Source: a virus
Taxonomy: Duplodnaviria; Heunggongvirae; Uroviricota; Caudoviricetes
Length of the DNA stretch: 64,000 nt
Reading direction: 5' to 3' (one strand)
IMG/VR virus record: IMGVR_UViG_3300044294_000233
The notes beneath the pieces are model-generated. The model did no database searches, was not told where the DNA came from, and saw nothing but the letters and a program-made list of their open reading frames with translations. The position numbers and the translations under genes are program-made. Of this stretch, positions 14,634-53,038 are shown piece by piece. The stretch's first letter is position 1, and every line of letters starts with the position of its first letter.

Positions 14634-14636
14634 GCC

Positions 14637-24000: not shown

Positions 24001-27000
24001 ACGGCCCCATCATCACGAGGAATGCCAACGCGCCCATCCATATAAACGTGGAAGCCAAAGTTGAGAATATCAAAAGCACGCCCAATAACGATAGTGACGC
24101 CGTTGCCGAAATCATTTTCCAAGACAGGCTCCTAATCGTGTCGGTCAACGAGGTGAACGAATCTTGAATGGCTTGCATTCGTTCTGGGGTCAGGCCCATG
24201 TCGTCAATGATCGTCCGGCCGAAGTTGGAGATCGCACTGCCAAGAGCCAAAATCGGGATCGCCAGCACCGCGAAGGCACCGACGCCCAACATCGCGAGGC
24301 TCATCATCAGAACGGAGAAGATGCTCAGAACGCCGAGGACCGCCAATTTCGCGGTGGCTCCCAACATCGACATGCACAATTCGCCAATCGTCTCAGACAG
24401 CGTCACGAACGTCTCGCCGATCTGCTTCATCCGTTCCGGGGTCAGACCCAGTTCGTCAAGCGTGTCGCCGAACTCGGCGATGATCTCGGCCAGAGCGAGA
24501 ATCGGCAAGCTTACCAGTGCGAATGCTCCCACGCCCAACCACATCAAGCCGTATGCGTAAAGCAGGAACGGGTAGGCGATACCCAACATGCTCCAGCCCG
24601 GAGTCGCCTCAATCAGTGCGTAGGAGATTGCCCCAATACCGATTGCCAGTACCAGCCACGTCGCCGCGATGTCGAACATCCGACTCGGCGTCAACCCAAG
24701 CTCGTCAATTACGATTGTCCCGAACGCGGCCAGAATCGCAGCGAACGCCACGATTGGCAAACTCACTAGCGCGAAGGCCGCAACCGCCATGAACAACAGG
24801 GGGAGCAGCGACCAGATCACACCCAGACCGACACCCATCGTTACCCATCCGGGCAACGATGCCGTTAGAGCGTAACCGATGGCCCCGACCGCGACGGCGA
24901 GGATCAACCATGTCGCTGCAATCTGGAACATACGGCCCGGAGTCAATCCGAGTTGATCAATTACGATGTACCCGAACCCTGCAAGAAGTGCCGCGAACGC
25001 GATGATCGGCAGACTCACTAAGGCGAATGCGGCCACTGCGTTTAGCAACACCGGCATCAACGCCCAGATCACCGACAGACCGGCACCCATCGTTACCCAT
25101 CCGGGCAACGAGGCGGCAAGAGCGTACCCGATGGCTCCGACCGCGACGGCGAGGATCAACCACGTCGCTGCAATGGCGAACATGCGGCCCGGACTCAGGC
25201 CGAACTTGTCGATGACAACGTATCCGAACAGTGCGAGAAGGCCCGCGAACGCGATGAGCGGCAAGCTGACTAGCGCGAACGCCGCCACCGCACTCCACAG
25301 CATCGGATAGATCGACCACACGGCACTCAGACCGGCACCCATTGTCGCCCATCCCGGCAACGAAGCCGTGAGAGCGTACCCGATGGCTCCGACCGCGACG
25401 GCGAGGATCAACCACGTCGCTGCAATGGCGAACATGCGGCCCGGAGTCAACCCGAACTTGTCGATCACGACGTAACCGAACAACGCCATGATTGCGGCGA
25501 ACGCGATCAGCGGCAGAGTCACGAGTCCGAACGCACCTACAGCGGCCCACAGTTCTTTGTGGAGCGTGTGCATCATCTTCGTGGCGACCGGGAGTTGTGC
25601 GTACATCGGCCCAGACCGGACAATCGCTTCCGCGATTCCGGCGATACCGAGAGCCAACGCGATCCACGTTCCGGCGATCAGGAGCAACCTGCCCGGACTC
25701 AGCCCCAACGCACCCAGAACGATCTTGCCGAAGATCGCGAGTTCCGCCGCAAACACGAGCAGCGGACCCGACAACTTCGCCAACGCCTTAGCGCCCTTCC
25801 ACATGTTCTTGACCATCGCGTTGATGTCCTTTTCGGCATCCGCGAGTTTGTCGAGGTGTGGCTTGGCGTAGTACAAGGCGGTGCCGATCAGTCCAGCCGC
25901 TCCCATGATCACGCCGATGATCGCGGCCGTCTCGATGACCGTCTTGATGTCCAGCTTCAATTTGCTGAACAACATGTTAGCCAACTTGATCAACACCGCG
26001 CCCAACAGCACGATTCCGATTGTCAGTGCCGCGATGATGCCGGCCGCTTTAGCGATTCTTGGTCCGTCCCCCTTCAGTTTCTCGATCTTGTCTAGGATCG
26101 ATTTGGTGTCGTCGCCACCAGCCGACGCCTTGCTTTTTTCTTTGGCCGCTGCCCCGCCCGCCTTCTTCTCCGCTTTGGCGACCGCTCCTTGTTCGATCTG
26201 GGCGGCATTGGCCTTATTCTTCTTGCCGATGTTTTTGAACTCGTCGTTCTCGATCCCGTTGGCCTTCGGACTGCACAGGCAGTGAAGCAACTGACGCAGC
26301 AACCCTGCTACCGTGTCGTCTTCGACGTGAGACACGCCGCCCAAACCGTCTTTTGCCAAAGCCTCGACGCCCTTGCCCGCATCAACTCCTGAACCAGCCG
26401 CCGCACCGGGTGCAACGTCCCCCGCCCCGCCCTTCTTCTTGCCGCCGTAACCGAAGATCTTGCCCAAGCCTTTTTTAAGCACACCCATCACACCGAAGTC
26501 CTTGTCGGCCCGCCACCGTGCGATGGACAACGCCTGTTGTGCCGCCATCATGCCCAAGAGCGGAGCCAATACGCCCAACACTCCCGTCAAGTTCATGTAA
26601 CTTGAAAGGAAACTGCTGGTGAAGTTCCTCATCGTGTCGTTCAGTTCGCGGACGCCCTGCTCGATCTTGCTCATCGGGTCCAGAGCGGCCTTCTGTGCGG
26701 TCGCGGCTTCTTGTTCGGCCTTAGTCAACTTGGCCGACAGTTCGCGGAACGCCGCAGGGTCTTTCAACGCCTTCTCGATCTCAGAAGAGTCGATACTCAG
26801 TTCCGACTTGCCGGACGCCTTCAGCGACTCGTTGACACCCTTCAAAGCTTCGTTGATGGCGTCACGGGCTGCACCGGCGTTGCTGCCCCACGACTTACCC
26901 ATCGCCTTCAGGTCGCCCTCGAAGTCCTTCCTTCTTTCTCCGAACTTGGACAACGCGGCGTTCATGTCCTTAGCGCCCTTAGCCGCCTCGTCCAAACTCG

Positions 27001-33873: not shown

Positions 33874-34361
33874 TTCTTGTTGTAGACGCTGTTGGCGTAA
33901 TCGCTGCCCGTGGGCCGTAGGATGATTTTGCCCATGCTGTCCGACTGACGGTCGAACTGCATGTCGCGGAAGTCTTCCTCGGCCTCTTTGCTCTTGCGGA
34001 AGAACCGCTTCAGTTCGTCGGCCACCGCCTCAACGATCCGCTTTGCCGCCTCTTCTTCTTTGATGTCGTCCATCATGAAGTCTTCGTACATCTCTTCCAG
34101 ATCGAGCAGGTACGGACGGCCGTAAGGTTCGGTGTTCTCCCGCTTCTGAACTCGGTACGCAATCGTGTCACCAACTTGATACACCCGCACGCCCCCGAAG
34201 TCGCTGTTGTCGTTGGGCGAAAGCAGGTAGATGTACGGAGTGTCTTCATCGAGAAACGGCTTCGCCTTCATCTGCCCACGCTGGAAGACCTGTTCCAGAA
34301 TGTGCAGGTGCCGCTTGCCGTCTCGCTTCCGTTTGTTGACAAATTCGAGGAAGGTTTCCAT
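33870..34361 (-). CDS. Hypothetical protein.
   Basis: 163-aa ORF. Confidence 0.4.
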   Translation of the reverse strand: METFLEFVNKRKRDGKRHLHILEQVFQRGQMKAKPFLDEDTPYIYLLSPNDNSDFGGVRVYQVGDTIAYRVQKRENTEPYGRPYLLDLEEMYEDFMMDDIKEEEAAKRIVEAVADELKRFFRKSKEAEEDFRDMQFDRQSDSMGKIILRPTGSDYANSVYNKN

Positions 34362-34657
34362 TAAACTCCGTGGCGTGCTTTGACACTTTTGTATTTGCCT
34401 ACCAACACCTCGTAACTCATCGTTGGTGTTTCGCCAATTTCTACTGCTCTCAGTGAGTTCAGAGCGGAATAAAACAAAGAGTCCAACTCATCTGCCAGAG
34501 CTTTGTAGTTTGTCTCTGGCTTCGCGTGGCGGTTTTTGCTCCACGCGGCCATCGCCGCAGCCTTGTCGGGATCGACGCCTTCGCGAAGTCCGATGTAGTC
34601 GCTAAACTTGTTCATTAGCACTTCCTCGTCAAAATCTCGTCCGCAGACGGGATACAC
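34361..34657 (-). CDS. Hypothetical protein.
   Basis: 98-aa ORF. Confidence 0.35.
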   Translation of the reverse strand: MYPVCGRDFDEEVLMNKFSDYIGLREGVDPDKAAAMAAWSKNRHAKPETNYKALADELDSLFYSALNSLRAVEIGETPTMSYEVLVGKYKSVKARHGV

Positions 34658-36090
34658 CGCGTCAAGGTTTTCAGGTCGCTCGGATTACCCTTGTACGGGA
34701 TTTCCTTCAGTACGATGCCCTGGAAGGAGGACGCGGCTTCCTTCAGGATCTGGTACTGGGCTGTCAGGAACAACATGCCGTCGCGCCGCACCATGAACTC
34801 GTGCTGCTCTTTTTCCGGCTTGCCGTCCTCGTCAAGCCGACCCGTCTCCCGTTCGTACATGATCTTCATTTCCACGAACGGGATGATCGAACCCTCGTCG
34901 TCAATCATCGCTTCCGAGTTCTCTGCCGCCGTCGTCTTGATCACCAGCTTGCCGTCCGTGTACGCAGACCGCAGACTGTTGCTCAAGTCCCAACCGAGCA
35001 TGTAAACCGTTCCGTCCTTGTTAACCACGTTCGCCACGAACGCACGCTTCCTGAAGTAGTCGGCGATGCTCTCCATGACCACGCGGCGGCGTAACACGTC
35101 CTTCTCTTCTGGCGTGCCGTCGTCCAACTTCTTCAGTTCCGGCTCGGACAGGTATCGCTCCGGGTCGTCTTCCTTCAACGCCCAACGGCCGATGTCGATC
35201 ATCCCCCAACGAGCGTTCATTCTCGTTGAAAGGCGGATCGAGTATTCTTTGTCATTGAAAATCACATCTTCGTTGTTGCCACCAGAACCCACCTGCACCC
35301 CGCCGAGCAGAGCGGCGATGTACTTGCGGTGAAGGTCGCCCTTCATCCCGTGAAGCCCTTCGAGCTTGATGAAGATGTTGCCCAAGTCCGGCTGCTGTTG
35401 CAGCGACATGAACAGGTGGTTGACGACCGATACGGACGGGTTGTTCTGGTCCAACTGCTCGCGGATCGACTTGCGGATCTCTTTGGACGCCTTCTCGACG
35501 TTCGCGTTCTGACGCAGGAATTGCACCTGAAGGTTGTCCTCAACGAACTTCCTCGGATACGAGTCGAGGTCGAGGTCGCGAACGTCGTGAATCATGTCGA
35601 TCAGTTTTTGGGCGTCACCCTTGATCGACTCCTTCAAGAAGTTGTTCTTCCAACGCTCGAAGTCCTCCGGGTCTTTGCTGTCGGGCATGTCCGGGGCTTG
35701 CGGGTCTTTGCTGATGTCGTCCGGTTCGTCGTCTGCCTTCTTGTCGCCCGCGTCCTTCGGCTTGTTGCCGCCGTCAGCGTCGGGCGGTCCACCCGCTCCC
35801 GCGCCCGGAGTACCCGGCGGATTGGAAGCGGCCGGCGGTTGTCCCCCGGCTCCAGCTTGGGCGTCAGGGGCCGTGAAGTTCTCTTCTTCTTTCAACAGCC
35901 AGCGACGGCCGTTGTTCTCGGCGACTTGGAGGCGACGATCCTCGTACCTGAGCCACTCGGTCAGTTCCTTGTGGGTCATTACGCTTTTTTCTGTGGCGGG
36001 GCGGTCGGCTTTGGCAGACGGTTTCTTGGCCGCGTTCGAGCCTACGGCCGGCTTGCCCTTCATCCACTCCCAGATTGCGTGGTTACTCAT
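34615..36090 (-). CDS. Hypothetical protein with a Gly/Pro/Ala-rich acidic linker.
   Basis: 491-aa ORF. The opposite-strand ORFs in this region are Arg/Leu/Val-rich antisense artefacts. Confidence 0.45.
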   Translation of the reverse strand: MSNHAIWEWMKGKPAVGSNAAKKPSAKADRPATEKSVMTHKELTEWLRYEDRRLQVAENNGRRWLLKEEENFTAPDAQAGAGGQPPAASNPPGTPGAGAGGPPDADGGNKPKDAGDKKADDEPDDISKDPQAPDMPDSKDPEDFERWKNNFLKESIKGDAQKLIDMIHDVRDLDLDSYPRKFVEDNLQVQFLRQNANVEKASKEIRKSIREQLDQNNPSVSVVNHLFMSLQQQPDLGNIFIKLEGLHGMKGDLHRKYIAALLGGVQVGSGGNNEDVIFNDKEYSIRLSTRMNARWGMIDIGRWALKEDDPERYLSEPELKKLDDGTPEEKDVLRRRVVMESIADYFRKRAFVANVVNKDGTVYMLGWDLSNSLRSAYTDGKLVIKTTAAENSEAMIDDEGSIIPFVEMKIMYERETGRLDEDGKPEKEQHEFMVRRDGMLFLTAQYQILKEAASSFQGIVLKEIPYKGNPSDLKTLTRCIPSADEILTRKC

Positions 36091-36574
36091 TGGTCTTCTT
36101 CTCCTTGTCTTTCTTGGCCTTCATCCGTTTTTCAAGCTGCTCAAGGAAGGAGCGACGTGTACCGGAGAAGTGGTAGTGGTTTTCCTGACTCGCCGTGACC
36201 GACTTGGGTCCGGCGGTCGTCGTCATTTCTTTCAACTTGAAGCTCGCCATCAGTTTGACGATGCCCATCATCTTGTCCGACATGCCGGCCTTCGTATTCA
36301 CCAACCCCACTAGGGCTTCTTTGGTTGCCGGCTGGCTGTTACCTTCGTTGAACACCATTTCAACGAAGTTGGCTATTAGCGTGTCGATCTGTTTGCGGTC
36401 GCTCCTCATGTTCGTGAGGATTTCGGCACACAGGCCCAACATCTCGTCGTCCTCGAACATTGGGGTCGAGGCCGAGAGCGGTCGCTGATCTGGGAGCGGA
36501 GCCATGACTTCCGGTGCGGCCGGCAGTATGTCGTTCTCGACGGCTTCCAACATTTGGTCAATATCTTGGTTCAT
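36083..36574 (-). CDS. Hypothetical protein.
   Basis: 163-aa ORF with an 8-nt overlap with the downstream gene. Confidence 0.4.
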   Translation of the reverse strand: MNQDIDQMLEAVENDILPAAPEVMAPLPDQRPLSASTPMFEDDEMLGLCAEILTNMRSDRKQIDTLIANFVEMVFNEGNSQPATKEALVGLVNTKAGMSDKMMGIVKLMASFKLKEMTTTAGPKSVTASQENHYHFSGTRRSFLEQLEKRMKAKKDKEKKTNE

Positions 36575-36628: not shown

Positions 36629-37075
36629 ATGCCACCGCCGAATCAAAAATCCGACGCCACACAAGAAACGGTACGTCAATTGTTTGAGATCTCCAGCCGT
36701 ATAGACGAAAGGATCAAGTATCTAGTCGAAAAGCAGAACGAGATGTCCGACAAGATCGAGAAACTCGCGATCAACATGACCGAGACGGCGGTGCGTGTCG
36801 CCGTCCTAGAAAAGTCTGGTTGGGATAAATCGAAGGACAACCTTGACGAGATCGACAAAAAAGTGGCCGTTCTGGACAAGCAGTTCAACAACGGCCTGAA
36901 AGCAGACGTACAAGAACTGAAAGAAAAGGTCCGCGTCCTTGAGTTCAGCAACGAACACAACACCAGCTACCGCAACAAGGGCGAGATCCGCCTTCAGTGG
37001 TGGCTCGATGCGGCGTGGAAGGTGATGCAAATTGTCGGAGCCGCCGCACTTGCTTATTACTTGAGCAAAAAGTAA
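36629..37075 (+). CDS. Coiled-coil protein with a C-terminal transmembrane anchor.
   Basis: Heptad-rich KIEKLAINM...LKEKVRVLEF. The C-terminus WKVMQIVGAAALAYYLSKK is hydrophobic. Confidence 0.4.
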   Translation: MPPPNQKSDATQETVRQLFEISSRIDERIKYLVEKQNEMSDKIEKLAINMTETAVRVAVLEKSGWDKSKDNLDEIDKKVAVLDKQFNNGLKADVQELKEKVRVLEFSNEHNTSYRNKGEIRLQWWLDAAWKVMQIVGAAALAYYLSKK

Positions 37076-37096: not shown

Positions 37097-38647
37097 ATGA
37101 TGAAAAAGTTCACTTTGTTCCGCGAAGAACGAGACGCCAAGACCCCCATCTCGTCCAAAATCAAACTGCAAAAGCAAGAAGGCTCTGCGGAGTTTTCTCC
37201 TTTCCGCGTCGATAAGGCTACCCGCCCGAACCTCCGCACACTGATCCAAGCCTTCAAGGGCAGCGGTCAGGTCGGCCTCGGCTACACCACCATCGACAAG
37301 TCGAAGGGCGAACACGAACCGCTGATGAAGGCCAAGAACTTGTGGCTCACCGGCGGCGCGGTTCGCGACCACCTCAAGGGCAAAACCCCGAAGGGCTACG
37401 ACCTCGTTACGGACGCCACTCCTTCCGAAGTCCGCATGATTCTCTCCAACTCGGAACAACCGTTTACTGAGGTCAAGCCGAAAGACGGCGAGATGGGTCA
37501 GGACGAGCGGTACGCCGATCTGCCGAGCGGCAACAAGCGTCGGTGCTTCTACGCCAGCCGTTGGGACGGACAGGGCAAAGAGATCGAGATCACCGTCGAG
37601 ATAAACGGCGAGAAGTTCGAGCTTGCGTCCCTCGGCAAGCACGGCAAAAGTCGCCGGGTGAACCCGGACAAAGCCGACGTTGCGACCAGCGTCGAAGAAG
37701 ACAGCATGGGTCGCGACTTCACGATGAACGCCATGTATATCCCATTGAGTCAAAGTGACGGCGAGAACAGCGAATTGATTGATCCGCATGGTGGCGCACA
37801 CCACCTGAAGGCGGGCGAGGTCAAGTTTATCAACAGTCCTATGGACAAGATGCGTGACGACCCGATGACGGCATTCCGTTACCTCAATCAAACTGGCAAG
37901 TTCGGAAAGTTTTCGGGAATCGGCGACAAGGAAAAAGCGGCGATTGGGCAGTTCAAAGACATGGCCGACGTTGACCCGTCCGAGATCCGCAAATCGTTCC
38001 TCAGCGGCCTCGAAGATCCCGACATGGACGCCAGAGGGTACATGGGCGCGGCTAAGGGTCTGGGCCTTCTGAACGTCGTGTTCCCTGATCTCGAATTCCG
38101 CGAAGACGACATGCCGCCGGACTTCCGTGGCGACCGCTGGTTGGCACCGGCTTGGGTTCTCAGGGACAACGACCCCGAAAAGGTCAAGAAGGTACTGGGC
38201 GGCGGCGGCTGGAGCAAACAAGAAGCATCGGACATCGCCTATCTGGTCAAGATCGCATCTTGGGCTGAAAAGGATGGGTTCAGTCCCGACAAGCTCAAGG
38301 ACGTTAAGGGCCACACCGGGCTGACCAAGAGCAAGATCCGCGAATGGCTCCAAATGATCAACAAGGGTCAGGGCGGCGAAGCGGAAGGTCTGTTCAAGGA
38401 CGGCGAGGACGAAAACGATATGGGCGGCGAGGAAGGTCCGCAGGAGAAAAGAATGGGAGCGGCCAAGTCGCTCACCAGACCGTCTTCTGACGAAGGGGAT
38501 GCAGAGGAGAAACCGGAAAAGAAGGATGACGGCGGCGAGAAAAAGGAGTCGATGTCTTGGGGCCGTATGATGGAACGCATCAAGAACCGCCCGGCCCAAC
38601 AGGAGCGTCCGACCGAGTCGGCTGGTTGGGTTCCACTCATCCGCTGA
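37097..38647 (+). CDS. tRNA nucleotidyltransferase (CCA-adding enzyme) / poly(A) polymerase-family protein.
   Basis: The head domain has the Pol-beta nucleotidyltransferase motifs LWLTGGAVRDHLKGKTPKGYDLVTDATPSEV (GGxVRD...D.D) and MGRDFTMNAMY (RDFTxNA). The C-terminus is an acidic/Lys-rich tail. Confidence 0.7.
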   Translation: MMKKFTLFREERDAKTPISSKIKLQKQEGSAEFSPFRVDKATRPNLRTLIQAFKGSGQVGLGYTTIDKSKGEHEPLMKAKNLWLTGGAVRDHLKGKTPKGYDLVTDATPSEVRMILSNSEQPFTEVKPKDGEMGQDERYADLPSGNKRRCFYASRWDGQGKEIEITVEINGEKFELASLGKHGKSRRVNPDKADVATSVEEDSMGRDFTMNAMYIPLSQSDGENSELIDPHGGAHHLKAGEVKFINSPMDKMRDDPMTAFRYLNQTGKFGKFSGIGDKEKAAIGQFKDMADVDPSEIRKSFLSGLEDPDMDARGYMGAAKGLGLLNVVFPDLEFREDDMPPDFRGDRWLAPAWVLRDNDPEKVKKVLGGGGWSKQEASDIAYLVKIASWAEKDGFSPDKLKDVKGHTGLTKSKIREWLQMINKGQGGEAEGLFKDGEDENDMGGEEGPQEKRMGAAKSLTRPSSDEGDAEEKPEKKDDGGEKKESMSWGRMMERIKNRPAQQERPTESAGWVPLIR

Positions 38648-38664
38648 TCGGTTTACAAACAGCG

Positions 38665-38699
38665 AAGCCCTCCCTATAACAAGGGAGGGCTTCTTTTTG
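38665..38699 (+). terminator. Rho-independent terminator.
   Basis: aagccctccct/agggagggctt stem followed by tctttttg. Confidence 0.6.
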
Positions 38700-38715
38700 C
38701 GCCGAGGGTAATGTC

Positions 38716-39057
38716 GTGCTGGAATACAGCGTCCAAGCCACGCCGTTCATCATCCGCGATCTGGGGTGGAAGTTCATCAAGGAACTTGCGGCTCAGGCGT
38801 ACCCTCTTTTCGAGGACGGGCAGTTCCGCCGTTTGGTCTTCGGGTCGCAAGGCACACAGGTTCTCGACACCGTGGACCCCGATAAAATCAAAGTGATCTT
38901 TGCACAGATCGAAGATCGGGCGGTCATGATCGCGCCGTACCGCGACGAAGAAGGCATCAAGGTGCTTTACTTCAAATGGGTCGAAGAAACTCTCTACGAT
39001 TCATTCTGCGTACCCGATGGGCAGAACCGAGTCTGGGACAACCGAGAGAAGCCGTGA
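38716..39057 (+). CDS. Hypothetical protein.
   Basis: 113-aa ORF with a GTG start. Confidence 0.35.
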   Translation: MLEYSVQATPFIIRDLGWKFIKELAAQAYPLFEDGQFRRLVFGSQGTQVLDTVDPDKIKVIFAQIEDRAVMIAPYRDEEGIKVLYFKWVEETLYDSFCVPDGQNRVWDNREKP

Positions 39058-39253
39058 CAGACCGCGTCGAAACCTACAAAGTTGAACACGGGTGGAACCA
39101 CCCCTACCCGTGGATGTTCCGCGTCTGGCACAACGGCGTTTGCCATCAGTTCGCGGGCATGCCCAATCAGTGTTCTACACGCAGAGAAGCTGCCGCTCGC
39201 GGGGGCTGGCGGCTCAGATGGCTCAAAACCGGCAAGTTTCAGGAGAAGTACAA

Positions 39254-39769
39254 GTGAATATCGACGTTTTCGATTTTGACGGGACACTCGTCAAGACGCC
39301 CGGACGCGAGCAAGCCGAGAAAGACTTCCTCGCGGCGACCGGGAACCCGTGGCCGCACATCGGTTTCTACGGCCGACTGGAATCTCTGATCCCTCCTGTC
39401 TTCCCAGAGAAGCCGGGTGACGAGTTCTTGATTCAAGAAGTCGCCGAGATCTGCCGCGCCAAAGAATGCGATCTCCGCGTGCTGATGACGGGGCGACCGT
39501 ACAAACTACGCAATCGCGTCCTCGAAATCTGCACCCACTACGGCCTCGCCTTCGGCCTGACCTATTTTCAGGGCCAGAAGGACTGCCCCGGAATCAACAC
39601 TTTCGAGTGCAAAACTTCGGGGCTGCGACAACTCTTAACCCTTAATCCACAACGACTTAGGTTGTGGGAGGACCGGGAAGATCACTTCGTTCTGTTCGAG
39701 GAGTTGTTCAGGACGTTTCGCGCAGAGCGTCCAGAGGTGGAGTTCGTTCTGAACCGGGTGGTGTCGTAA
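39254..39769 (+). CDS. HAD-superfamily phosphatase-like protein.
   Basis: GTG start. VFDFDGTLVKTP is HAD motif I (DxDGT). It lies inside the longer annotated frame 39092..39769. Confidence 0.5.
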   Translation: MNIDVFDFDGTLVKTPGREQAEKDFLAATGNPWPHIGFYGRLESLIPPVFPEKPGDEFLIQEVAEICRAKECDLRVLMTGRPYKLRNRVLEICTHYGLAFGLTYFQGQKDCPGINTFECKTSGLRQLLTLNPQRLRLWEDREDHFVLFEELFRTFRAERPEVEFVLNRVVS

Positions 39770-39775
39770 ATAGGC

Positions 39776-40084
39776 TTGATGGCCTACACCCTCTTCTACG
39801 ACTCGATGCGTTTCTTGAAGAAGGTCGTCCGCAGCAACAAGCCGGTCAAAGTTCGACGGATGAAGCTGACGGACGACGTTGAGGGTCTTTGTATCGAGAA
39901 GTCCGATCACTTCTTGATCAAGGTTTCCAATGAATTGACCATGAGCCACGCCATCGACGTGATGATCCACGAATTTGCTCACGTCGAAGCATGGGGTAAA
40001 CAGCGGGACGCACACGGTTCGGTGTGGGGGAAGTGTTACAGCCGACTTTTTCGCGAGTATTACGACGGCTTCCTCGCCAACTGA
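39776..40084 (+). CDS. Small zincin-like protein (HExxH).
   Basis: The sequence MIHEFAHVEAW contains HEFAH. Confidence 0.4.
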   Translation: MMAYTLFYDSMRFLKKVVRSNKPVKVRRMKLTDDVEGLCIEKSDHFLIKVSNELTMSHAIDVMIHEFAHVEAWGKQRDAHGSVWGKCYSRLFREYYDGFLAN

Positions 40085-40097
40085 CTCTCTTTAGTGC

Positions 40098-40952
40098 ATG
40101 GACTACCTAGTCGTTGCACCCAACACGCCTCACTACCAGTGGCAGATCGCCATTCTCGCGCAGAGCTTCAAACTCCACGGTCTGCAAGAGAATCTGTGCG
40201 TCATTCTCGTCGTAAACGAAGATACGCCGACGATCAACTTGTATCACAAGCACTTCGCCGATCTCCCTCGTCTGCACGCCATCAAATTGGCGACCGATCC
40301 CGACCCGGATGTTGCGAGACTCGATGCGTTGGCGTTGGCGTCTGCCCGCAGTTTGATTTCCCAGACGTTTATCAGTTTGCCGCCGCACTGCGTTTTGTGG
40401 CACCCGCCGAAGAAACTCGACGCCAACATTTCGTTCGCCTGCCGATCTGATTTCACTTTCTCCCACCTTACCAGTTATGGGATTTCGGGAGACGAGATTG
40501 CTCGTAGGTCGGGCGGGAGGAAGCAATGGTTCCCGGTCGGTGAGATCTTCGGGTTCAAAAACGTCCACACCGAGTTCTTCTACAGGGTTGTGGAGCGTGC
40601 CAGACTGATTGGATTCGATTCTTACCGGCAACTGTTGAGGGCGGGGTCAGACAAGAAGGTGAAGGGTCTTTTTAGGGCGGGCATGTCTTTGTCGTTGCTT
40701 GAACACTTCGACCGCTACAGCATCGACACTTCGATGAATCTGGAGTGTCAGATGACGGATACCAACTTCACCGCGAACTTCATCAACTACTGCTACGGTT
40801 CGCCGCCGGATTTCAACAAGATCTACTATCAACTCGACGGCAACAAGTTCGGGTTTTCGGATTCGCCGTTCGCGGCGATCATGCGGGCCGACACTTCGCC
40901 CGCGACCGACTTCATGAAGAAGGTCGTTTCGACTATGCTCCCCCGCCCATAA
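40098..40952 (+). CDS. Hypothetical protein.
   Basis: 284-aa ORF. Confidence 0.4.
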   Translation: MDYLVVAPNTPHYQWQIAILAQSFKLHGLQENLCVILVVNEDTPTINLYHKHFADLPRLHAIKLATDPDPDVARLDALALASARSLISQTFISLPPHCVLWHPPKKLDANISFACRSDFTFSHLTSYGISGDEIARRSGGRKQWFPVGEIFGFKNVHTEFFYRVVERARLIGFDSYRQLLRAGSDKKVKGLFRAGMSLSLLEHFDRYSIDTSMNLECQMTDTNFTANFINYCYGSPPDFNKIYYQLDGNKFGFSDSPFAAIMRADTSPATDFMKKVVSTMLPRP

Positions 40953-41517
40953 CCTGATTCGGCTTGGCTTTACTCGCAGCTACTTCGCTCGGTGTCATCG
41001 GGTGCTTCGGGTCTACTGTCGGCGTCTTAGACGCGACCGGCGGCGTCACCTTGTTCATCTTCAACCACGGCGGGGTCAGCTTGTCGATGTTCGCCGGCAC
41101 CGCGCCCTGTTTCGCGCCCTTTTCCAATACACCGGCGACATCGACTCCTTTGCCCTTACCGATCTGGTTGGGAATTGGCTTGCCGGTCGGTGTCATGAGG
41201 CCGACAACCCTCTCCCAGTCTTTCTTGTTGATGCCCTTCGGAACGGTTTTGCCGTTGAGCATGTTCTGTTGCTTCTGGAACTCTTGGTCTGCGACCATTT
41301 TCGCTTTGTCGGGTTTGGCGTTCGGGTTGGCCTGTACGTTGGCGACGACTTTTTCGAGGTCCGCGCCGGACTGTTGGAGTTGTGCAACGAAGGCGTCTCT
41401 CGTCCCTGGATCGCTCAGGTCAATGCCCAGATCACCGACGATGGCCTCGAAGAGTTGTGGATTACGAAGTCTGACGTAGTTTGCGAACGACATTGTTTCC
41501 TTTGCAAATCGGTTCAT
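40933..41517 (-). CDS. Hypothetical Lys/Pro-rich protein.
   Basis: 194-aa ORF, convergent with the upstream plus-strand gene. Confidence 0.35.
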   Translation of the reverse strand: MNRFAKETMSFANYVRLRNPQLFEAIVGDLGIDLSDPGTRDAFVAQLQQSGADLEKVVANVQANPNAKPDKAKMVADQEFQKQQNMLNGKTVPKGINKKDWERVVGLMTPTGKPIPNQIGKGKGVDVAGVLEKGAKQGAVPANIDKLTPPWLKMNKVTPPVASKTPTVDPKHPMTPSEVAASKAKPNQVMGGGA

Positions 41518-41536
41518 CCTATCTAGTCCCCAGACC

Positions 41537-41546
41537 GGCTATACTT
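41537..41546 (+). promoter_or_regulatory. GGCTATACTT variant of the -10-like motif, 16 nt upstream of the ATG at 41563.
   Basis: It shares the CTATACT core with the GTCTATACTG family. Confidence 0.25.
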
Positions 41547-41562
41547 CAAAAAAGGGGATCAC

Positions 41563-42108
41563 ATGCAAGCAGCCATTTTCATTCACGGTCAAGTTCTCTG
41601 TGGACCCACTCGCGAAAGCCTCGCCGCCTGTATGACGGATGCCGACGCCGTGAGCGGTTTCTACCACCACGATCACAAACGGTTCGTATCGGAAGACCGC
41701 CAGTTCTACATGAAGGACATCGTCCTGATCCGTCACGCCGACGCCGAGGGCGACAAACTCACCGGCAAAGGCATCGCCCAGATCCAAAGTAGCCTGCCCC
41801 GACTGAATTCTTTGTACCGCAGTAATTTGGAGATAATCTCTGCCCCGTTCGAGAGATGCGAACACACGGCGTGGGCGCTCGCGACTCATTTTTCGCTTTC
41901 GGCTAAAGCGAACGACTCGATCCGCGAACCAGCTACTGACGAGAACGTGTCGGCGGCTCTGGACGAGTTGCCTGATTATGCTATGTTGATTGTTCCCGCC
42001 GATTTCCTTTGCCTCGCCGTTGGCAAAGCGACCGGGAAGTTCCCGTCCTCGGTTCCCAACATGGCCGTGATCCGCCTGTTGGCGAACGCTGCGGAAGAGA
42101 TCGCTTGA
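41563..42108 (+). CDS. Histidine-phosphatase-superfamily protein (SixA/PGAM-like).
   Basis: IVLIRHADAEGDKLTGKGIAQ...IISAPFERCEHTA fits the RHG-motif family (RHxxA...SP.xRa.xTA). Confidence 0.5.
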   Translation: MQAAIFIHGQVLCGPTRESLAACMTDADAVSGFYHHDHKRFVSEDRQFYMKDIVLIRHADAEGDKLTGKGIAQIQSSLPRLNSLYRSNLEIISAPFERCEHTAWALATHFSLSAKANDSIREPATDENVSAALDELPDYAMLIVPADFLCLAVGKATGKFPSSVPNMAVIRLLANAAEEIA

Positions 42109-42189: not shown

Positions 42190-43296
42190 ATGATCAGAAA
42201 GATGTGCGGGCTGGCGCTGGCCTTTACTTTGCTGTTCGCCAGCAACGCTTATGCCGGCCCGCCCAAGTCCAGCAGTGGCAGTTCGAGTCGCCCCAGTTTC
42301 AGTGGCGGGAGTAGTAAGCCCGCGTTTTCGGGCGGCAGCAGTAGCGCTCCGAAGTTTAGCGGAGGAAGCAGTGCCGCTCCCTCCAGCACCCCGAAGTTCA
42401 GTGGCGGGAGCAACCCTCCCACCAGTACGGCGAAACCGCCGGCAACGAGTCGTCCGAGTTTCAGCGGCGGGTCGAATCCGCCGACAGGTGTCGCAAAGGG
42501 CAGTGCGACAGACAAGCCGGTTTTTGGAGGCGGGTCTACCTCACCTCCAAACAAGACGGTGACGACGACACCGATTCAAGGTCGTCAGCCGACCACCGTG
42601 AGCAAGAAACCGGCGGCTGAAACGTTCGACAAGTTGTCGGGAACCGAAGCCCGAAAGACCGAGAGCCGAAAGTCCTACGAGAAGTCCGAAGCACCTGCGG
42701 CGTCGTACAAAACGCCTGCCGGTAAAGACGTGCCGATTGCCAAAAACGATAAGTCTGCCGACTATCTGCGCGGCCGGCTGGACGAGTCGCGATGGCAGAA
42801 CCGCTCGCAGCGGACGGATACCTTCTACGGGTCGTACTACAGCCGCTACCCGTCAACGGTGATCGTCCACTACAACGACTCCTACCACCCGTACTGGAAT
42901 TACTGGTTGGCGAGTCAAACCATCGACGTGATGTCCCTCTGGGTGTACCACCACCAGATGTCGATGGACCAAGCTCGACTCAACGCCATGTACGCCCAGA
43001 ACGCCGACCTTCGCGCAAGGGTAGCCGCCCTCGAACGGCAAGGGATTCCGAGAGACGTGACGTACACCCCGCGAGGGGTTGACGCCGACATGATGTACGA
43101 TGACGGGTACGTCAACGCCTGCTGGAACCCCCGGCCGAAACAGGTTGACTACTACGAGTACGACGATCCGCCGACGCACCATTCGTCGGGCGGCGGAAAT
43201 GTAGGAAAAGCCTTGCTCTGGATTTTCGTCTACATTCCGCTGATCATTATCGGGCTGGTTGGTCTATACTGGCTCGTGTTCCACTACCGCTGGTAA
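42190..43296 (+). CDS. Secreted, membrane-anchored repeat protein with a signal peptide, six (P/S)(S/A/K)FSGGS repeats and a C-terminal transmembrane helix.
   Basis: The N-terminus MIRKMCGLALAFTLLFASNAYA is signal-like. The repeats are PSFSGGSSK, PAFSGGSSS, PKFSGGSSA, PKFSGGSNP, PSFSGGSNP and PVFGGGSTS. The C-terminus LLWIFVYIPLIIIGLVGLYWLVF is hydrophobic. Confidence 0.55.
   Translation: MIRKMCGLALAFTLLFASNAYAGPPKSSSGSSSRPSFSGGSSKPAFSGGSSSAPKFSGGSSAAPSSTPKFSGGSNPPTSTAKPPATSRPSFSGGSNPPTGVAKGSATDKPVFGGGSTSPPNKTVTTTPIQGRQPTTVSKKPAAETFDKLSGTEARKTESRKSYEKSEAPAASYKTPAGKDVPIAKNDKSADYLRGRLDESRWQNRSQRTDTFYGSYYSRYPSTVIVHYNDSYHPYWNYWLASQTIDVMSLWVYHHQMSMDQARLNAMYAQNADLRARVAALERQGIPRDVTYTPRGVDADMMYDDGYVNACWNPRPKQVDYYEYDDPPTHHSSGGGNVGKALLWIFVYIPLIIIGLVGLYWLVFHYRW
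43262..43271 (+). promoter_or_regulatory. GTCTATACTG motif inside the 3' end of the previous gene, about 70 nt upstream of the ATG at 43343.
   Basis: The 14-mer tctatactggct is shared with 32528. Confidence 0.3.
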
Positions 43297-45675: not shown

Positions 45676-45680
45676 GCATG

Positions 45681-46694
45681 TTCAAGGTGCCGGACGGCAA
45701 GATGTTCATTCTGCCGCCGCTCGCCACACCAGCGAAGCAAGGACCGTTCTTCGTCGCCCGGAAGAACGGCTCCGCGATGTTCAACCCGACCAAGAAGAAC
45801 GTCTGTGGTTGTCCGATCTGTGAATTCGAGAAAGACCAGCGTGCCATGTCCAAGCCCACACTGACGCCTCTGGTGCTTCCTTCCGTCGCTGCCGGCAAAG
45901 GACTCGACCACCTCAACAAGAGGGGCTGCTGCAAGTATTGGCCCAACCTGACGGACGAAGCACTCGTCCGTCACGGCAACGAGTGCTTCTACTGCACCGC
46001 CAACCCCGAAGTCGGCCTCGACATCTGGCACCTCGACTACGCGACCCGTACCGTTGTGCTGAAAGAGGTCGTGGTCGTCTGCAAGTGGTGCTACCGCGCC
46101 GTCAACATCGCCGAGTCCGAAGAGAGCGATTACTTCCAAGAGGTCGTTCACCACATCGGCACCGTTCGCGGCATTAAGAAACAAGAAGTCGGGGAACTGA
46201 TTCGCGCCGCCTACGAAAACTGGGAGGTGGCGACACAAGGCCAGTGGGAACTCAGTTACGGCGACTTCGCCCACTTCATCCACGAGCCGGGGAAGCTTCC
46301 CGATGTTTCCGTCTTCGATAAGCTCCCGAAGCTCAAGGACCACGAAAGAAAGCCGTCCCAGACGAATCACGTCAAGTTTTTGCTCGTGAAACGTGACGCG
46401 AATAAAACATTGGGGAAGGGTCCGTGTCCGGTCTTCATTCTCAGCGGCAACATGCAGGAGGTCGATCAGATCTGGTCATGTGCTGCCCACATGACTAAAA
46501 ACGGTCACCTCGCGGCCGAGGCGTTCGCGTCTACAATGAGAGAGTCCGAGGTCAAACCCATCTTGTCCGCAACCGGGTTTGTTGGTATTGTGCTGGACAA
46601 AACGGACTCCAAGTACGAAATCGAGAAGACGCTCCAAGTCCTGTTCGGGAGTGTCGCAAAGTCGATTCAGTTCACCGAAGGTAAAGTGAAATGA
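45681..46694 (+). CDS. Cys-rich hypothetical protein.
   Basis: ATG at 45681 (GTG at 45675 is also possible). CGCPIC and CxxC pairs are present. It lies inside the longer annotated frame 45504..46694. Confidence 0.4.
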   Translation, partial: FKVPDGKMFILPPLATPAKQGPFFVARKNGSAMFNPTKKNVCGCPICEFEKDQRAMSKPTLTPLVLPSVAAGKGLDHLNKRGCCKYWPNLTDEALVRHGNECFYCTANPEVGLDIWHLDYATRTVVLKEVVVVCKWCYRAVNIAESEESDYFQEVVHHIGTVRGIKKQEVGELIRAAYENWEVATQGQWELSYGDFAHFIHEPGKLPDVSVFDKLPKLKDHERKPSQTNHVKFLLVKRDANKTLGKGPCPVFILSGNMQEVDQIWSCAAHMTKNGHLAAEAFASTMRESEVKPILSATGFVGIVLDKTDSKYEIEKTLQVLFGSVAKSIQFTEGKVK

Positions 46695-47221
46695 AGATCA
46701 CGAAGTTCCGCGACATCCCGCAGTTCGTGCGGCACGGCTCTTACGAGGTCGATGTCTCGCCGGAAAGCCTGATCAGCACCATCAACGACTTCGTTGAACA
46801 AGGTCTGGATTTGGACCCCGACTTCCAGAGGGGACACGTCTGGTCCGACAAGCAGCGGGTCGCGTTCGTTGAGTTCTTCTTGCGCGGCGGCAAGACCGGC
46901 CGCGTCATTTACCTCAACAACCCGAACTGGCACTTCAACAACGAGAAGGGCTACAACGATTTCGTCATCGTTGACGGCAAGCAACGGGTCGAAGCGTTCC
47001 GCAAGTTCATCAACAATGAGATCAAGGCGTTCGGCTCCTACTACCGCGAGTACACCGACAGCATCCGCCTCGTCAACACGATGAAGATCAACGTCAACGA
47101 TCTGCGGACGCGGGCCGACGTTCTCCAGTGGTACATTGACTTCAACGCGGGCGGCGTGGTACACTCGGACAAAGAAATCAGCCGCGTTCGGCGGCTACTC
47201 AAAAAGGAAACGTCAAAATGA
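46691..47221 (+). CDS. DUF262 / ParB-like nuclease-domain protein (GmrSD N-terminal-like), short form.
   Basis: LDPDFQRGHVWSDKQRVAFVEFFLRGGKTGRVIYLN...VIVDGKQRVEAFRKF matches the DUF262 pattern (FQRxxVW...Q...I(D)S...G.P...I... DGQQR). Confidence 0.5.
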   Translation: MKITKFRDIPQFVRHGSYEVDVSPESLISTINDFVEQGLDLDPDFQRGHVWSDKQRVAFVEFFLRGGKTGRVIYLNNPNWHFNNEKGYNDFVIVDGKQRVEAFRKFINNEIKAFGSYYREYTDSIRLVNTMKINVNDLRTRADVLQWYIDFNAGGVVHSDKEISRVRRLLKKETSK

Positions 47222-48731: not shown

Positions 48732-49250
48732 ATGGGAACAGAGTTCGTCCCCGAAGGCTGCGACTTCCAAACGGCCGAAGCCGTCAACATCGAAAGCTGC
48801 ACCCTCCTCGGCTTCAACAACTGCTTCTCGGTCAGGCTCGCGGACGGCAGCTACGCCGATGTCGTGAACTTCTACCACGAAGACATCGAAGACCTTCTCG
48901 AAAAGAAGGAAATCACTTGGCCGATCCAAGTCGCGGTCCTCGGCCCGAAGACCGTCGCTTTCAACGATCCGCGACTGCCGCACGGCAAATATCGCAAGGA
49001 TTTCTGTACGGTCTGCTGCCCGGTCGAACTCCTGCCGACTCCGCAACGCCTCCAGATCGCTCGCGAGATTCAGTGCGGGAAGACCAAGTACACCCGGCAC
49101 GAAGGCGGCATGGTAATCATCAGCCACAACCACCGTTGTGAAGGTGCGCCGAAGCTGACGAATTGGAAGGTCGAGATCAACCCGAATCCGACCGTCGTCT
49201 ACTGTCTGGACGAAGCCGCCCTCAAAGCCTTTGACGGAGACAAGAAATGA
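48732..49250 (+). CDS. Cys-rich hypothetical protein.
   Basis: 172-aa ORF with a GGAGA ribosome-binding site. Confidence 0.4.
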   Translation: MGTEFVPEGCDFQTAEAVNIESCTLLGFNNCFSVRLADGSYADVVNFYHEDIEDLLEKKEITWPIQVAVLGPKTVAFNDPRLPHGKYRKDFCTVCCPVELLPTPQRLQIAREIQCGKTKYTRHEGGMVIISHNHRCEGAPKLTNWKVEINPNPTVVYCLDEAALKAFDGDKK

Positions 49251-50434
49251 ACTGGCTCGGCTGGCTCGGTGCAATCCTCGGCGTCCTCGCGAGCGTGTGG
49301 GTGCTGTTCCGCTACGCCGGATCAATAACGATCCGTCTCGACGCCCGCACGTTCAAGACGCTGTACGAGATCTCCAAACGACCGGGCCACCGGAAGTTCA
49401 TCATCAGCGAAGAGTTCATCACCGAAGCTAAGTACCCCGTCGAGTTCCGCGCCCTCTGCTTCTTCGAGGGCTGCCCGTGGTTCTACCTCAACCACGGCGA
49501 ACGGTTGCTGACGGCGGGGTGGCACGGCAAGGACAGCGTGACGCATCTGACCTGTTTACGTTGGCGTGCCGCCCGCGTCAAACAGTACCTCGACTTCAAG
49601 ATCAAAGAGATCCAGATGAACAGTCTGGGCGTCCCGGCCGAAGTCATCATGCCCAACTACACGGACATGATCGGCCTCATCAAAGGGACGCCCCCGCAGC
49701 CCGCTCTGGACCCGCAACTGTGGGAAGACATCGAGAAGGATGCGGCCGAAGTGTTCTCTGGGAAGAAGCAGAAGAGTGGCGCGTTGATCTACGGCCCGCC
49801 CGGTAACAACAAGACGTTCTTCATCAAGTATCTGGCGACCAAGTACCGGGTGCCGATCAAGATTATCACGTTCACACCGGACTTCAGTAACTTCGATGTG
49901 ATGGGGATTTTTAGCCAGATCAGCAGCCGGTGCATCGTACTGTTCGAGGACTTCGACAACTACTTCGACGGCCGGCGGTGCATCCTCGGAACCGAGAACC
50001 ACAGCATCAAGTTCACGTTTGATCAGATTCTCAATGGGCTGGACGGGGTCTACAATACCTACGAGAACTGTTTTTTCGTGATGACCGTTAACGACATAAC
50101 GAAAGTCGATCACGCGCTCAAAAACCGTCCGAGCCGCTTCAAGTTCGTCCGTGAGTTCAAGTGTCCCGATCTGCAAACGCGGATGAAATTGTTGCCGAAG
50201 CAATGGGCCGAGAGCAGTGAGGGGTTGAACCTCGACCAGATCTTCCGGCTCAAAGAGTTCCACGAACAAGGACTGTCTCTGGACGAAGCCAAATCGAATC
50301 TTGGCCAAGCCGACAGGACCGCAGAAATCGCGAAGATGGCACACCAGCTTTACGAGAAGCGGGTTCGCGAAGGTCTGGCCGGGGATAACGAGGGCGACTG
50401 GTACGAAGCCAAAAGGATACTGGGTGTCACTTAA
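49247..50434 (+). CDS. Membrane-anchored AAA+ ATPase (BCS1-like architecture).
   Basis: The N-terminal transmembrane helix is WLGWLGAILGVLASVWVLF. ALIYGPPGNNKTFFIKYLA is the Walker A motif and CIVLFEDFD the Walker B. NRPSRF resembles a sensor/Arg-finger region. Confidence 0.7.
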   Translation: MNWLGWLGAILGVLASVWVLFRYAGSITIRLDARTFKTLYEISKRPGHRKFIISEEFITEAKYPVEFRALCFFEGCPWFYLNHGERLLTAGWHGKDSVTHLTCLRWRAARVKQYLDFKIKEIQMNSLGVPAEVIMPNYTDMIGLIKGTPPQPALDPQLWEDIEKDAAEVFSGKKQKSGALIYGPPGNNKTFFIKYLATKYRVPIKIITFTPDFSNFDVMGIFSQISSRCIVLFEDFDNYFDGRRCILGTENHSIKFTFDQILNGLDGVYNTYENCFFVMTVNDITKVDHALKNRPSRFKFVREFKCPDLQTRMKLLPKQWAESSEGLNLDQIFRLKEFHEQGLSLDEAKSNLGQADRTAEIAKMAHQLYEKRVREGLAGDNEGDWYEAKRILGVT

Positions 50435-52518: not shown

Positions 52519-53019
52519 ATGTCCAAAGCAGGCAAAATGCACGGCGAGATCGTCAGCGAAGAAGAAGTCGCGAAGGGACTCGGCTTCGCAAACGTCGATG
52601 AGTTCCGCCGCTGGCAAACCGAACTCGGCCACAAGAAAGGGGAACTCGAATTCGCACTTTCCGAAGCCAAGCGGGAGTCGCGCCGCTTCCGATGGGCCGG
52701 AATGCGTATGGAGTTCATGCTCGGCAAGGCCGAAGCCTATCTCCAGACCGAACTCAACGCCGCCAAGCACCACGTCGCCAAACTCGAAAATTCCGGGGTA
52801 ATGGCTGAAGGGGCCATGAACGAGAACTCGGAGATGGCGGCAGTCAAAGACACCATCGAGATTCTCGAAAAGCTGCTCCTCGGTATCCGCGTCGTCTGCA
52901 ACAGGGACGTTGACTGGAAGCACGTTCTGGAAGACTGGCTCGGTCAGTTCAACAAGTCCGATGAAGAGATCTTTAAGGCCAAACAAGCGGCCGAAGCCCA
53001 ACCGGAAAGTGGTTCTTGA
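52519..53019 (+). CDS. Hypothetical protein.
   Basis: ATG at 52519, after a hairpin. It lies inside the longer annotated frame 52231..53019. Confidence 0.4.
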   Translation: MSKAGKMHGEIVSEEEVAKGLGFANVDEFRRWQTELGHKKGELEFALSEAKRESRRFRWAGMRMEFMLGKAEAYLQTELNAAKHHVAKLENSGVMAEGAMNENSEMAAVKDTIEILEKLLLGIRVVCNRDVDWKHVLEDWLGQFNKSDEEIFKAKQAAEAQPESGS

Positions 53020-53038
53020 ATCCCGAAGGGACACCGGC

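Follow-up and report, generated by a model that had tools for sequence, protein, structure and literature searches.

The 64,000-nucleotide (nt) stretch of DNA analyzed here, IMG/VR record IMGVR_UViG_3300044294_000233 (the window, in whose positions all coordinates are given), comes from a very large (huge) tailed phage. At positions 37097–42108 it carries a block of genes that opens with a 516-amino-acid (aa) homolog of the class II tRNA nucleotidyltransferases (NTs) and poly(A) polymerases (PAPs) and includes a HAD phosphatase, a small zincin and a histidine phosphatase. Our analysis suggests that this block derives from an RNA 3′-end healing module, composed of phosphatases and a nucleotide-adding enzyme, that has since partly decayed and been re-tooled, and that it is not a working module of that kind. 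We give this reading an even chance of being correct, and favor it because a sister clade encodes a fully canonical NT beside the HAD and histidine phosphatases. In the ancestral block, a canonical NT, the HAD phosphatase and the histidine phosphatase would have healed and rebuilt RNA 3′ ends, and in the window lineage this block would have been partly dismantled or re-tooled. The NT, which is present in every relative despite the degeneration of its active site, would now most likely act as a noncatalytic RNA 3′-end or nucleotide-binding protein, and the HAD phosphatase would remove 3′ phosphates from RNA ends, while a separate histidine phosphatase, itself degenerate in the window, follows the operon.

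The first-pass annotation of this DNA placed the NT in the tRNA-NT/poly(A) polymerase family, and both its Pfam match and its whole-length fold bear this out. Against PF01743, which covers the head domain, the protein scores 72.8 bits (cutoff 23, E = 4e-20); it also matches the phage tRNA nucleotidyltransferase PHROGs (phrog_2244), with no NCBIfam equivalog near its cutoff. An AlphaFold2 (AF2) model computed from an alignment of 119 sequences has a predicted local distance difference test score (pLDDT) of 85.8, with a core above 95, and the top 37 Foldseek matches of this model in the PDB are all CCA-, CC- or A-adding enzymes or PAPs, aligned over 362–473 columns, with the best matches to CCA-adding enzymes and PAP covering 366–466 columns at E values of ~1e-12. 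These structural alignments to class II enzymes show 16–20% sequence identity. The confident model and the whole-length matches make membership in the class II fold solid. The GGAVRD motif, at residues 86–91, is invariant across 120 homologs, RDFTMNA lies at residues 206–212, and most of the motifs that contact the nucleotide and ribose are kept (GGAVRDHL, RDFTxN and DPxGG). An antibiotic or other non-RNA nucleotidyltransferase is ruled out by the class II tRNA-NT fold and motifs. Beyond the shared core, the NT has a family-specific N-terminal domain of ~80 aa, an insertion of ~25 residues net between motif A and the catalytic hairpin, and a C-terminal segment of ~85 aa that is predicted to be disordered.

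The active site tells a different story from the fold. In class II enzymes, motif A binds two catalytic Mg ions and motif D serves as an amino-acid template that selects the nucleotide (PMC7947759). When the window NT (GKTPKGYDLVTDATP) is aligned with E. coli PAP (GKKPKDFDVTTNATP), GKTPK-G-Y-D-LVTDATP falls opposite GKKPK-D-F-D-VTTNATP and RDDPMTAFRY opposite REDPVRMLRA, in both cases without gaps. The metal-binding DxD of the window protein is G100-Y-D102, which aligns to D-F-D in E. coli PAP and to D-V-D in a CCA enzyme. Across the query and its 120 homologs (n = 121), the first Asp position is occupied by N in 103 sequences, G in 13, D in 2 and S in 2, and the second by D in 115 and N in 5. 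Motif D reads D254-D255-P-M-T258, with Thr in place of the templating Arg, and Thr occupies this position in 109 of the 121 sequences. Motif B reads GRDFTMNA, with RD retained and N or G standing in for the leading Arg across the clade; a QRD version of this motif is tolerated in CC-adding enzymes (PMC7947759). Finally, the strand of the third carboxylate, IEVTTFR/EVTTFR in a CCA enzyme of known structure, corresponds to F-x-L-A-T-L-S in the window clade. The carboxylate position is E175 in the window protein, within KFELASL, and is variable in the clade (E, A, N, R, D, K, S, T, Y or P), while the FR that follows is lost. Three residues are thus missing from the NT, namely a metal-binding Asp, the base-templating Arg and the leading Arg of motif B; it is therefore very unlikely to polymerize CCA, and a CCA-addition assay of the window protein would most likely be negative. 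The more specific proposal that it is a CCA-adding enzyme is not supported by the active site.

To place these changes, we assembled 62 loci of this NT family (28–100% identity) and 17 loci of ordinary phage NTs by a pattern scan of IMG/VR and by look-ups. All family members share three traits that the ordinary phage NTs lack: the N-terminal domain of ~80 residues, the insertion between motif A and the hairpin, and an SDGxN insertion. The family also occupies one fixed genomic position in all 62 loci and is restricted to phages, almost entirely on metagenomic contigs of huge phages. Metagenomic contigs, including one >200 kb long, carry identical copies of the 516-aa protein, and homologs occur on contigs of up to 670 kb. 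By tblastn, a single GenBank phage record among 50,697 has a family member, the 595-kb uncultured phage LR756511.1, whose copy at 580770–581987 is of the type I described below, and the remaining matches are distant canonical NTs; at the DNA level, the window matches known phages over just 110 nt of this same record and nowhere else. Among 185,579 species genomes one has a family member, on a 48-kb contig of a metagenome-assembled genome (MAG), and on this count a cellular origin of the subfamily was rejected. This sole “cellular” match (JAYVUD010000138.1), assigned to a Chloracidobacterium MAG, probably represents a phage contig binned in error and offers at most a faint hint of an acidobacterial (Acidobacteriota) host.

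Within the family, three active-site types can be distinguished. Type I (loci L006, L040, L045, L046, L049 and L053–L055) is fully canonical, with D-[YI]-D, EFEIATFR, RRD and ED(Q/L/E)LR, and two further loci (L043 and L044) are of type I save for D-Y-N. Type II, which comprises the window and most other loci, has (N/G)-Y-(D/N), F-x-L-A-T-L-S, (N/G)RD and EDPxT. Type III (L057, L059, L061 and L062) has N-I-E or D-I-Q together with GRD and retains the template Arg. On a neighbor-joining tree rooted with the ordinary phage NTs, type II forms one clade that is sister to type I, and type III branches apart. Because type II is monophyletic and the other degenerate lineages stand separately on the tree, catalytic residues have been lost at least three times, and in the clade of the window four active-site features were lost together. 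The degenerate copies are nonetheless under strong purifying selection: close type II pairs, N-Y-N forms included, have dN/dS values of 0.079, 0.080 and 0.083, compared with 0.04 for a type I pair and 0.02–0.07 for a neighboring structural gene. These low values rule out a decaying pseudogene.

At least three separate catalytic losses under purifying selection suggest that the conserved role of the family never depended on polymerization. The window NT might accordingly be a true pseudoenzyme, a CCA-enzyme scaffold kept throughout the clade for noncatalytic binding of tRNA 3′ ends or nucleotides; in this strict form we consider the proposal doubtful. Such a protein might be a shield, decoy or sensor against host attack on tRNA acceptor ends or, alternatively, might serve the neighboring 3′-phosphatase as a targeting subunit.

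The second component of the proposed healing module is the HAD phosphatase. Its reading frame, marked by DFDGTL, is open from 39092, and the real start is a GTG at 39254 (MNIDVFDFDGTL, 171 aa) that is preceded by AGGAG and is also called on a near-identical contig. The window protein scores 29.7 bits against PF10307 HAD_SAK_1 (cutoff 25.6), and all 16 of 16 homologs match this family, the best with E = 1.8e-16. The next-best Pfam family, matched by 6 of the 16, is PF25109 HAD_PNKP, the phosphatase domain of PNKP. HAD motifs I–IV are intact (D7, D9 and T11; T79; K120; E139-D140), and in the alignment D7, D9, T11, T79, K120 and D140 are invariant and E139 nearly so. The “Swiss-army-knife” (SAK) HAD has been described as a stand-alone, linear 3′-phosphatase of jumbo-phage RNA repair, a toolkit of which CCA-adding enzymes are another part (Iyer et al., PMC7824862). 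Judged by its family membership, the window protein is most likely a polynucleotide 3′-phosphatase acting on the RNA ends that metal-independent RNases produce, which it would heal, and the earlier assignment to an end-healing phosphatase family is upheld. Neither enzyme thus falls where the proposed link to RNA would end: the NT is not of the antibiotic type, and the HAD phosphatase does not belong to a small-molecule family.

All four previously listed genes (NT, HAD, zincin and histidine phosphatase) are present on the + strand, some with corrected boundaries, and the last three lie 0.6, 1.1 and 2.9 kb, respectively, from the NT stop codon. A hairpin, two small open reading frames (ORFs), a conserved 284-aa protein and an ORF on the opposite strand were absent from the earlier listing. 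The block and its immediate upstream neighbor comprise the following features.

36629–37075, + strand: u148, 148 aa, a predicted coiled-coil protein with a hydrophobic C-terminal segment and only weak coiled-coil-type profile matches.
37097–38647, + strand: the NT, 516 aa, a class II tRNA-nucleotidyltransferase/poly(A)-polymerase homolog with a degenerate active site.
38664–38693, + strand: an intrinsic-terminator-like hairpin, with a 12-bp stem (8 G-C pairs) and a 6-nt loop, followed by TTTTT.
38716–39057, + strand: orfA, 113 aa, which opens a translationally coupled run and is called on near-identical contigs.
39054–39257, + strand: orfB, putative, 67 aa, which starts with a GTG inside the orfA stop overlap (GTGA) and ends in a stop that overlaps the HAD start (GTGA).
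39254–39769, + strand: the stand-alone HAD_SAK_1 phosphatase, 171 aa (PF10307).
39776–40084, + strand: a SprT-like zincin, 102 aa, with an HEFAH motif (PF10263).
40098–40952, + strand: d284, 284 aa, a GT-A-fold protein resembling nucleotide-diphospho-sugar transferases.
40933–41517, − strand: m194, 194 aa, found in the closest relatives only, which breaks the + strand run.
41563–42108, + strand: a branch 1 histidine phosphatase, 181 aa, with an RHA motif (PF00300).

The 22-nt spacing and shared direction of u148 and the NT make it probable that the two are cotranscribed. The hairpin starts 17 nt past the NT stop codon and is by far the strongest site in a scan in which terminator-like sites are overall no more numerous than expected. 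Downstream of it, orfA, orfB and the HAD gene are joined by GTGA overlaps, and the SprT-like and d284 genes come next, preceded by gaps of 6 nt and 13 nt, respectively. No match to orfA or m194 was found in Pfam, PHROG or NCBIfam, and in the 62-locus comparison orfA is likewise restricted to the closest relatives. Because orfB is absent from the gene calls on related contigs and was recognized by inspection of the sequence, it is tentative.

The zincin is an ordinary small SprT-like peptidase. Its HEFAH motif (H65, E66 and H69) is followed by D78, H80 and G85 (HGxxWG), all invariant in 21 orthologs. The window copy itself falls below the PF10263 cutoff (E = 1.4e-4, 22.1 bits against 25.6), but 19 of the 21 orthologs match this family at E ≤ 0.01, the best with E = 2.6e-8. 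SprT-like peptidases have been noted in jumbo phages and proposed to target host proteins (PMC7824862). No support was found for the suggestion that the zincin is the protease arm of a DNA-mimic activity. A second putative metallopeptidase, with weak M90 and SprT-like matches (E = 2e-3 and 9e-3), is encoded elsewhere in the window, at 58613–59392 (−).

The d284 protein has no match in Pfam or among PDB sequences. A word-indexed homology search returned only three proteins, and an exhaustive representative search, used in its place, found 190 representatives in metagenomes. The AF2 model (pLDDT 93.7, predicted template modeling score [pTM] 0.91) matches BoGT6a, UGGT, LgtC and glycogenin in a Foldseek search of the PDB, with E values of 3e-7 to 1e-5, template modeling (TM) scores of 0.45–0.52 and a probability of 1.0. 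The top match is the metal-independent GT6 enzyme BoGT6a, and viral glycosyltransferases in BFVD are matched as well. A DxD motif is not conserved in d284: the window has LPPHCVL, the family varies among D, H, Q, Y and C at this position, and a second Asp is absent.

The histidine phosphatase begins with a family-specific N-terminal extension of ~50 aa. Its RHA motif is R57-H58-A, a further Arg, R98, lies in SAPFERC, and E127 is kept; no family member varies at R57, H58 or R98. The second catalytic His, however, is replaced in the window, which has LIVPADF, with Pro, where the family has LITHTDF, and all 11 of the 11 other members that reach this segment have (T/S)H(T/S/C/Q)(D/P). The window copy matches PF00300 below the cutoff (E = 2e-3), and all 14 of the 14 family members scanned, the window copy included, match it, the best with E = 6.6e-15. 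In a profile search of the PDB, SixA (1UJB, E = 2.8e-5) ranks behind ~19 other branch 1 proteins (best E = 5.8e-8), and NCBIfam matches are weak and mixed. The SixA-like identity that had been put forward for this protein was rejected on this ranking in favor of a generic branch 1 member, one that in the window has lost its second catalytic His.

The four genes are not grouped by chance, as dozens of related loci show them in the same order. Upstream, the order is a giant gene (−), u163b (−), u491 (−), u163 (−), u148 (+) and the NT (+); u163b, u491 and u163 are found in all 62 loci, u148 was detected directly upstream of the NT in 58, and the giant protein is present in 56. The block sits at a divergent junction with the tail/baseplate module. 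Downstream, the HAD phosphatase is present in 35 of the 62 loci, the SprT-like zincin in 42, d284 in 38 and the histidine phosphatase in 17, and their order and strand are nearly always NT, HAD, SprT, GT-A, histidine phosphatase, even at 28–35% NT identity. This recurrent order traces to a single lineage.

In one sublineage, the array has acquired a further enzyme of RNA repair. Loci L028 and L007 carry a 6.5-kb insertion between the NT and HAD genes, in which the genes from an RNA ligase to a PARG stand directly upstream of HAD and SprT on the same strand, and it is in this sublineage alone that the HAD array contains an RNA ligase. At positions 15230–20877 of L028 (and also in L007), the codirectional genes are an RNA ligase (PF09414, E = 2.3e-28), three small ORFs, PARG, HAD_SAK_1 and the SprT-like gene, with a YqeY-domain gene further on. 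The PARG, which lies directly upstream of HAD at 17165–17887 of L028, is of the microbial type. Within the window, a 376-aa ADP-ribosylglycohydrolase (PF03747, E = 1.9e-73) is encoded at 62527–63657 (−). The occurrence of this enzyme in the window and of PARG in related phages suggests that reversal of ADP-ribosylation may be a recurrent theme of the clade.

An alternative to descent from a healing module is that these genes are collinear but functionally unrelated neighbors and that the NT serves some clade-specific function outside RNA repair, perhaps in connection with u148 or with the adjacent tail/virion module. Nucleotides or small molecules would then be the substrates of the HAD and histidine phosphatases, the GT-A protein would modify DNA or glycans, and the SprT-like peptidase would cleave host proteins; the block would owe its conservation solely to the collinearity of this genome part in the clade. 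We think this less likely than our preferred reading, but it is the main rival, with a sizeable minority chance, and much of what speaks for it also weighs against that reading. The whole neighborhood is collinear in 62 of 62 loci, including unrelated structural genes (gpV, gp25 and the 2599-aa protein upstream). None of the HAD, SprT, GT-A and histidine phosphatase genes lies beside the 17 canonical phage NT genes, and because the NT–HAD pairing is one ancestral arrangement that is missing there, the synteny may reflect collinearity of a core genome. A strong terminator stands between the NT and the HAD operon. This operon includes a glycosyltransferase-like gene and a protease, neither of which has a known place or precedent in RNA repair. 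The accessory genes are individually dispensable, and HAD is missing from about half of the loci with a degenerate NT.

Other observations count against our preferred reading without bearing directly on this alternative. Neither a polynucleotide kinase nor an RNA ligase was found in the window ORFs by Pfam scans or in precomputed Pfam matches of matching contigs, and tblastn of the window with the L028 RNA ligase gave no match. A tRNA scan found no tRNA gene in the window, an Rfam scan of the window had no match, and the tRNA scan of 39 related loci found one tRNA only; with both tRNA scans nearly empty, there is no link of the NT cluster to tRNA genes. The placement of the HAD phosphatase comes from Pfam and not from a profile search of PDB sequences, in which all matches were insignificant (Pnkp1, E = 0.5). 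The window NT still has D102 and E175, and residues that compensate for those lost may be present. Finally, the association of the histidine phosphatase with the state of the NT, which otherwise speaks for our reading, is uncorrected for phylogeny: among nonredundant loci with ≥7 kb of downstream sequence, the histidine phosphatase is present wherever the NT is canonical (5 of 5) or partly canonical (3 of 3) but in only 5 of 31 loci with a degenerate NT (Fisher p = 7e-4 for canonical versus degenerate).

That same tracking of the catalytic state of the NT by the histidine phosphatase is, however, hard to reconcile with unrelated neighbors. So too are the assignment of the HAD phosphatase to specifically the RNA-repair SAK type with its affinity to PNKP, the insertion of an RNA ligase into the same array in one sublineage, and the position of HAD immediately downstream of the NT across very deep divergence. 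The RNA-end repair cluster originally proposed here is therefore sustained in part: the NT and HAD families, the conserved order and the ligase in one sublineage agree with it, and the degenerate NT, the GT-A gene and the failure to find a ligase, kinase or tRNA in the window do not.

Two further alternatives keep the NT catalytic. It might be active with changed chemistry or substrate, using a single-metal or differently liganded site, or acting on another nucleotide or acceptor. In keeping with this, GGAVRDHL, E200/D202, RDFTxN, D229 and D255 are near-invariant, the clade has specific acidic residues, E164 and E168, on the strand beside the catalytic hairpin, and purifying selection is strong. 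However, the D102 position is N in several members, and N-Y-N, D-Y-N, N-I-E and D-I-Q variants occur while the rest of the protein is conserved, which argues against a conserved metal site at the DxD position; moreover, by strand topology, E164 and E168 would lie two strands from the DxD strand. We regard a changed activity of this kind as improbable. Least probable is a working countermeasure module in which the NT adds CCA to trimmed tRNAs, the phosphatases heal 3′ ends and the zincin is an anti-defense protease: the family memberships of the NT and HAD, the use of CCA-adding enzymes and SAK-HADs in jumbo-phage RNA repair (PMC7824862), the conserved gene order and the retention of D102, E175 and most NTP- and ribose-contacting motifs suit it, but the losses seen in G100 in place of a metal-binding Asp, T258 in place of the templating Arg and GRD in place of RRD are fixed in a whole clade, the second catalytic His is missing from the histidine phosphatase, which shows no specific affinity to SixA, tRNA genes, ligase and kinase were not found in the window, and the zincin has no link to a DNA mimic.

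The remainder of the window, which has a G+C content of 55–60%, is that of a tailed phage with several further enzymes. The tail/baseplate module at 11478–28870 (−) encodes a gpV-like spike (Phage_base_V, PF04717), a gp25-like protein (GPW_gp25, PF04965) and proteins of 520 and 1051 aa. Upstream of the baseplate genes, at 21071–28870 (−), lies the gene for the 2599-aa protein, possibly the tape measure; homologs of the giant gene in relatives range from about 1640 aa to >5000 aa. The genes for proteins of 163, 491 and 163 aa at 33870–36574 (−), directly divergent from u148 and the NT, have no family match except for a weak small-terminase PHROG match of 36083–36574 (E = 5e-3), and the N-terminus of the 491-aa protein is a long, acidic stretch of low complexity. 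At 30437–32476 (+), a 679-aa protein has a major-vault-protein shoulder domain (PF11978; a precomputed match on a matching contig), and the longest-ORF call at 30407–32803 opposite this gene is probably spurious.

Immediately beyond the histidine phosphatase, at 42190–43296 (+), a 368-aa protein has a signal-peptide-like N-terminus, a long region of Ser/Gly/Pro-rich repeats (SFSGGS...) and a hydrophobic C-terminal segment, although gene calls for this region conflict between two near-identical contigs. A nuclease-type pair lies a few kilobases downstream of the cluster: a 338-aa gene at 45678–46694 (+), for which a longer, 396-aa ORF from 45504 weakly matches the HNH-endonuclease phrog_5200 (E = 4e-5), is followed at 46691–47221 (+) by a 176-aa GmrSD_N/DUF262-domain protein. 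At 49247–50434 (+) lies the gene for an AAA ATPase (PF00004, E = 8e-12), and the exact-product look-up of 52910–53989 returned no record. Toward the other end of the window, precomputed Pfam matches on a matching contig indicate a LAGLIDADG homing endonuclease at 9955–10974 (−) and, weakly, SET-domain, ParB_N and nucleoside 2-deoxyribosyltransferase-like proteins at ~8592–9104 (−), 6744–7202 (−) and 5601–6119 (+), respectively.

As a kind, the cluster is already known, since stand-alone SAK-HAD phosphatases, CCA-adding enzymes and SprT-like peptidases have been described in jumbo phages (PMC7824862, PMC7162821). What is new is that the NT subfamily is distinct, phage-restricted and held at a fixed genomic position, and that most of it is, by its residues, catalytically degenerate yet strongly conserved, with the canonical sister clade as a natural control. 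A full-text literature search turned up no account of a CCA-adding enzyme turned into a dedicated noncatalytic protein. In genome annotations, among them those of huge-phage surveys, such proteins are labeled tRNA nucleotidyltransferase or CCA-adding and are counted in the translation and RNA-repair toolkit, and for a large and widespread clade the CCA-adding label is probably wrong as regards catalysis. Moreover, canonical, partly degenerate and fully degenerate orthologs in one genomic context constitute a ready-made experimental system for the functions of the NT and of the HAD phosphatase.

Comparison with known systems places the individual proteins as follows. The window HAD phosphatase resembles the SAK-HAD family (PF10307) and the PNKP phosphatase domain (PF25109; T4 Pnkp and Pnkp1) in family score and in all four motifs. 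Unlike T4 Pnkp and Pnkp1, it has no fused or adjoining polynucleotide kinase, and the window has no RNA ligase. T4-type tRNA repair pairs the Pnkp kinase-phosphatase with an RNA ligase; neither the kinase nor the ligase was found in the window. The zincin is like the SprT-like zincins of jumbo phages (PF10263) in its HExxH motif, downstream His and HGxxWG and in being small and stand-alone, and differs in that the window copy scores below the Pfam cutoff and has no evident DNA-binding domain. The predicted fold of d284 is like that of the retaining GT-A glycosyltransferases (GT6 BoGT6a, GT8 LgtC and glycogenin, and GT24 UGGT), from which it departs in lacking a family match at the sequence level and a conserved DxD.

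For the NT, three comparisons are informative. The CCA-adding and repair enzyme of E. coli combines an NT with an HD phosphohydrolase domain and thus pairs a class II NT with 3′-end phosphoesterase activities. In the window, by contrast, the phosphatases are separate HAD and histidine phosphatase genes, the HD domain is absent, and the NT is degenerate. The canonical phage tRNA nucleotidyltransferases (phrog_2244), such as those of jumbo and large phages of Caulobacter, Aeromonas and Mycobacterium, are likewise phage-encoded and share the Pfam and PHROG family of the window NT, but with only 25–29% identity, in the head domain. In contrast to the window protein, they (L063–L079) retain DxD, EVxTFR, RRD and EDxxR, and they have neither the N-terminal domain nor adjoining HAD, SprT, GT-A and histidine phosphatase genes. 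Compared with the class II CCA-adding enzymes and bacterial PAPs (such as PDB 4X4W, 6QY6, 1MIV and 3AQK), the window NT has G-Y-D for DxD, GRD for RRD and DDPMT for EDxxR. It additionally has the N-terminal domain of ~80 aa, the insertion of ~25 residues, five extra residues (SDGxN) inserted between motifs B and C, and a disordered, charged C-terminal tail, and it has no HD domain. With these same enzymes, however, it shares both the head-neck-body architecture and the GGxVRD, RDFTxNA and DxxGG motifs.

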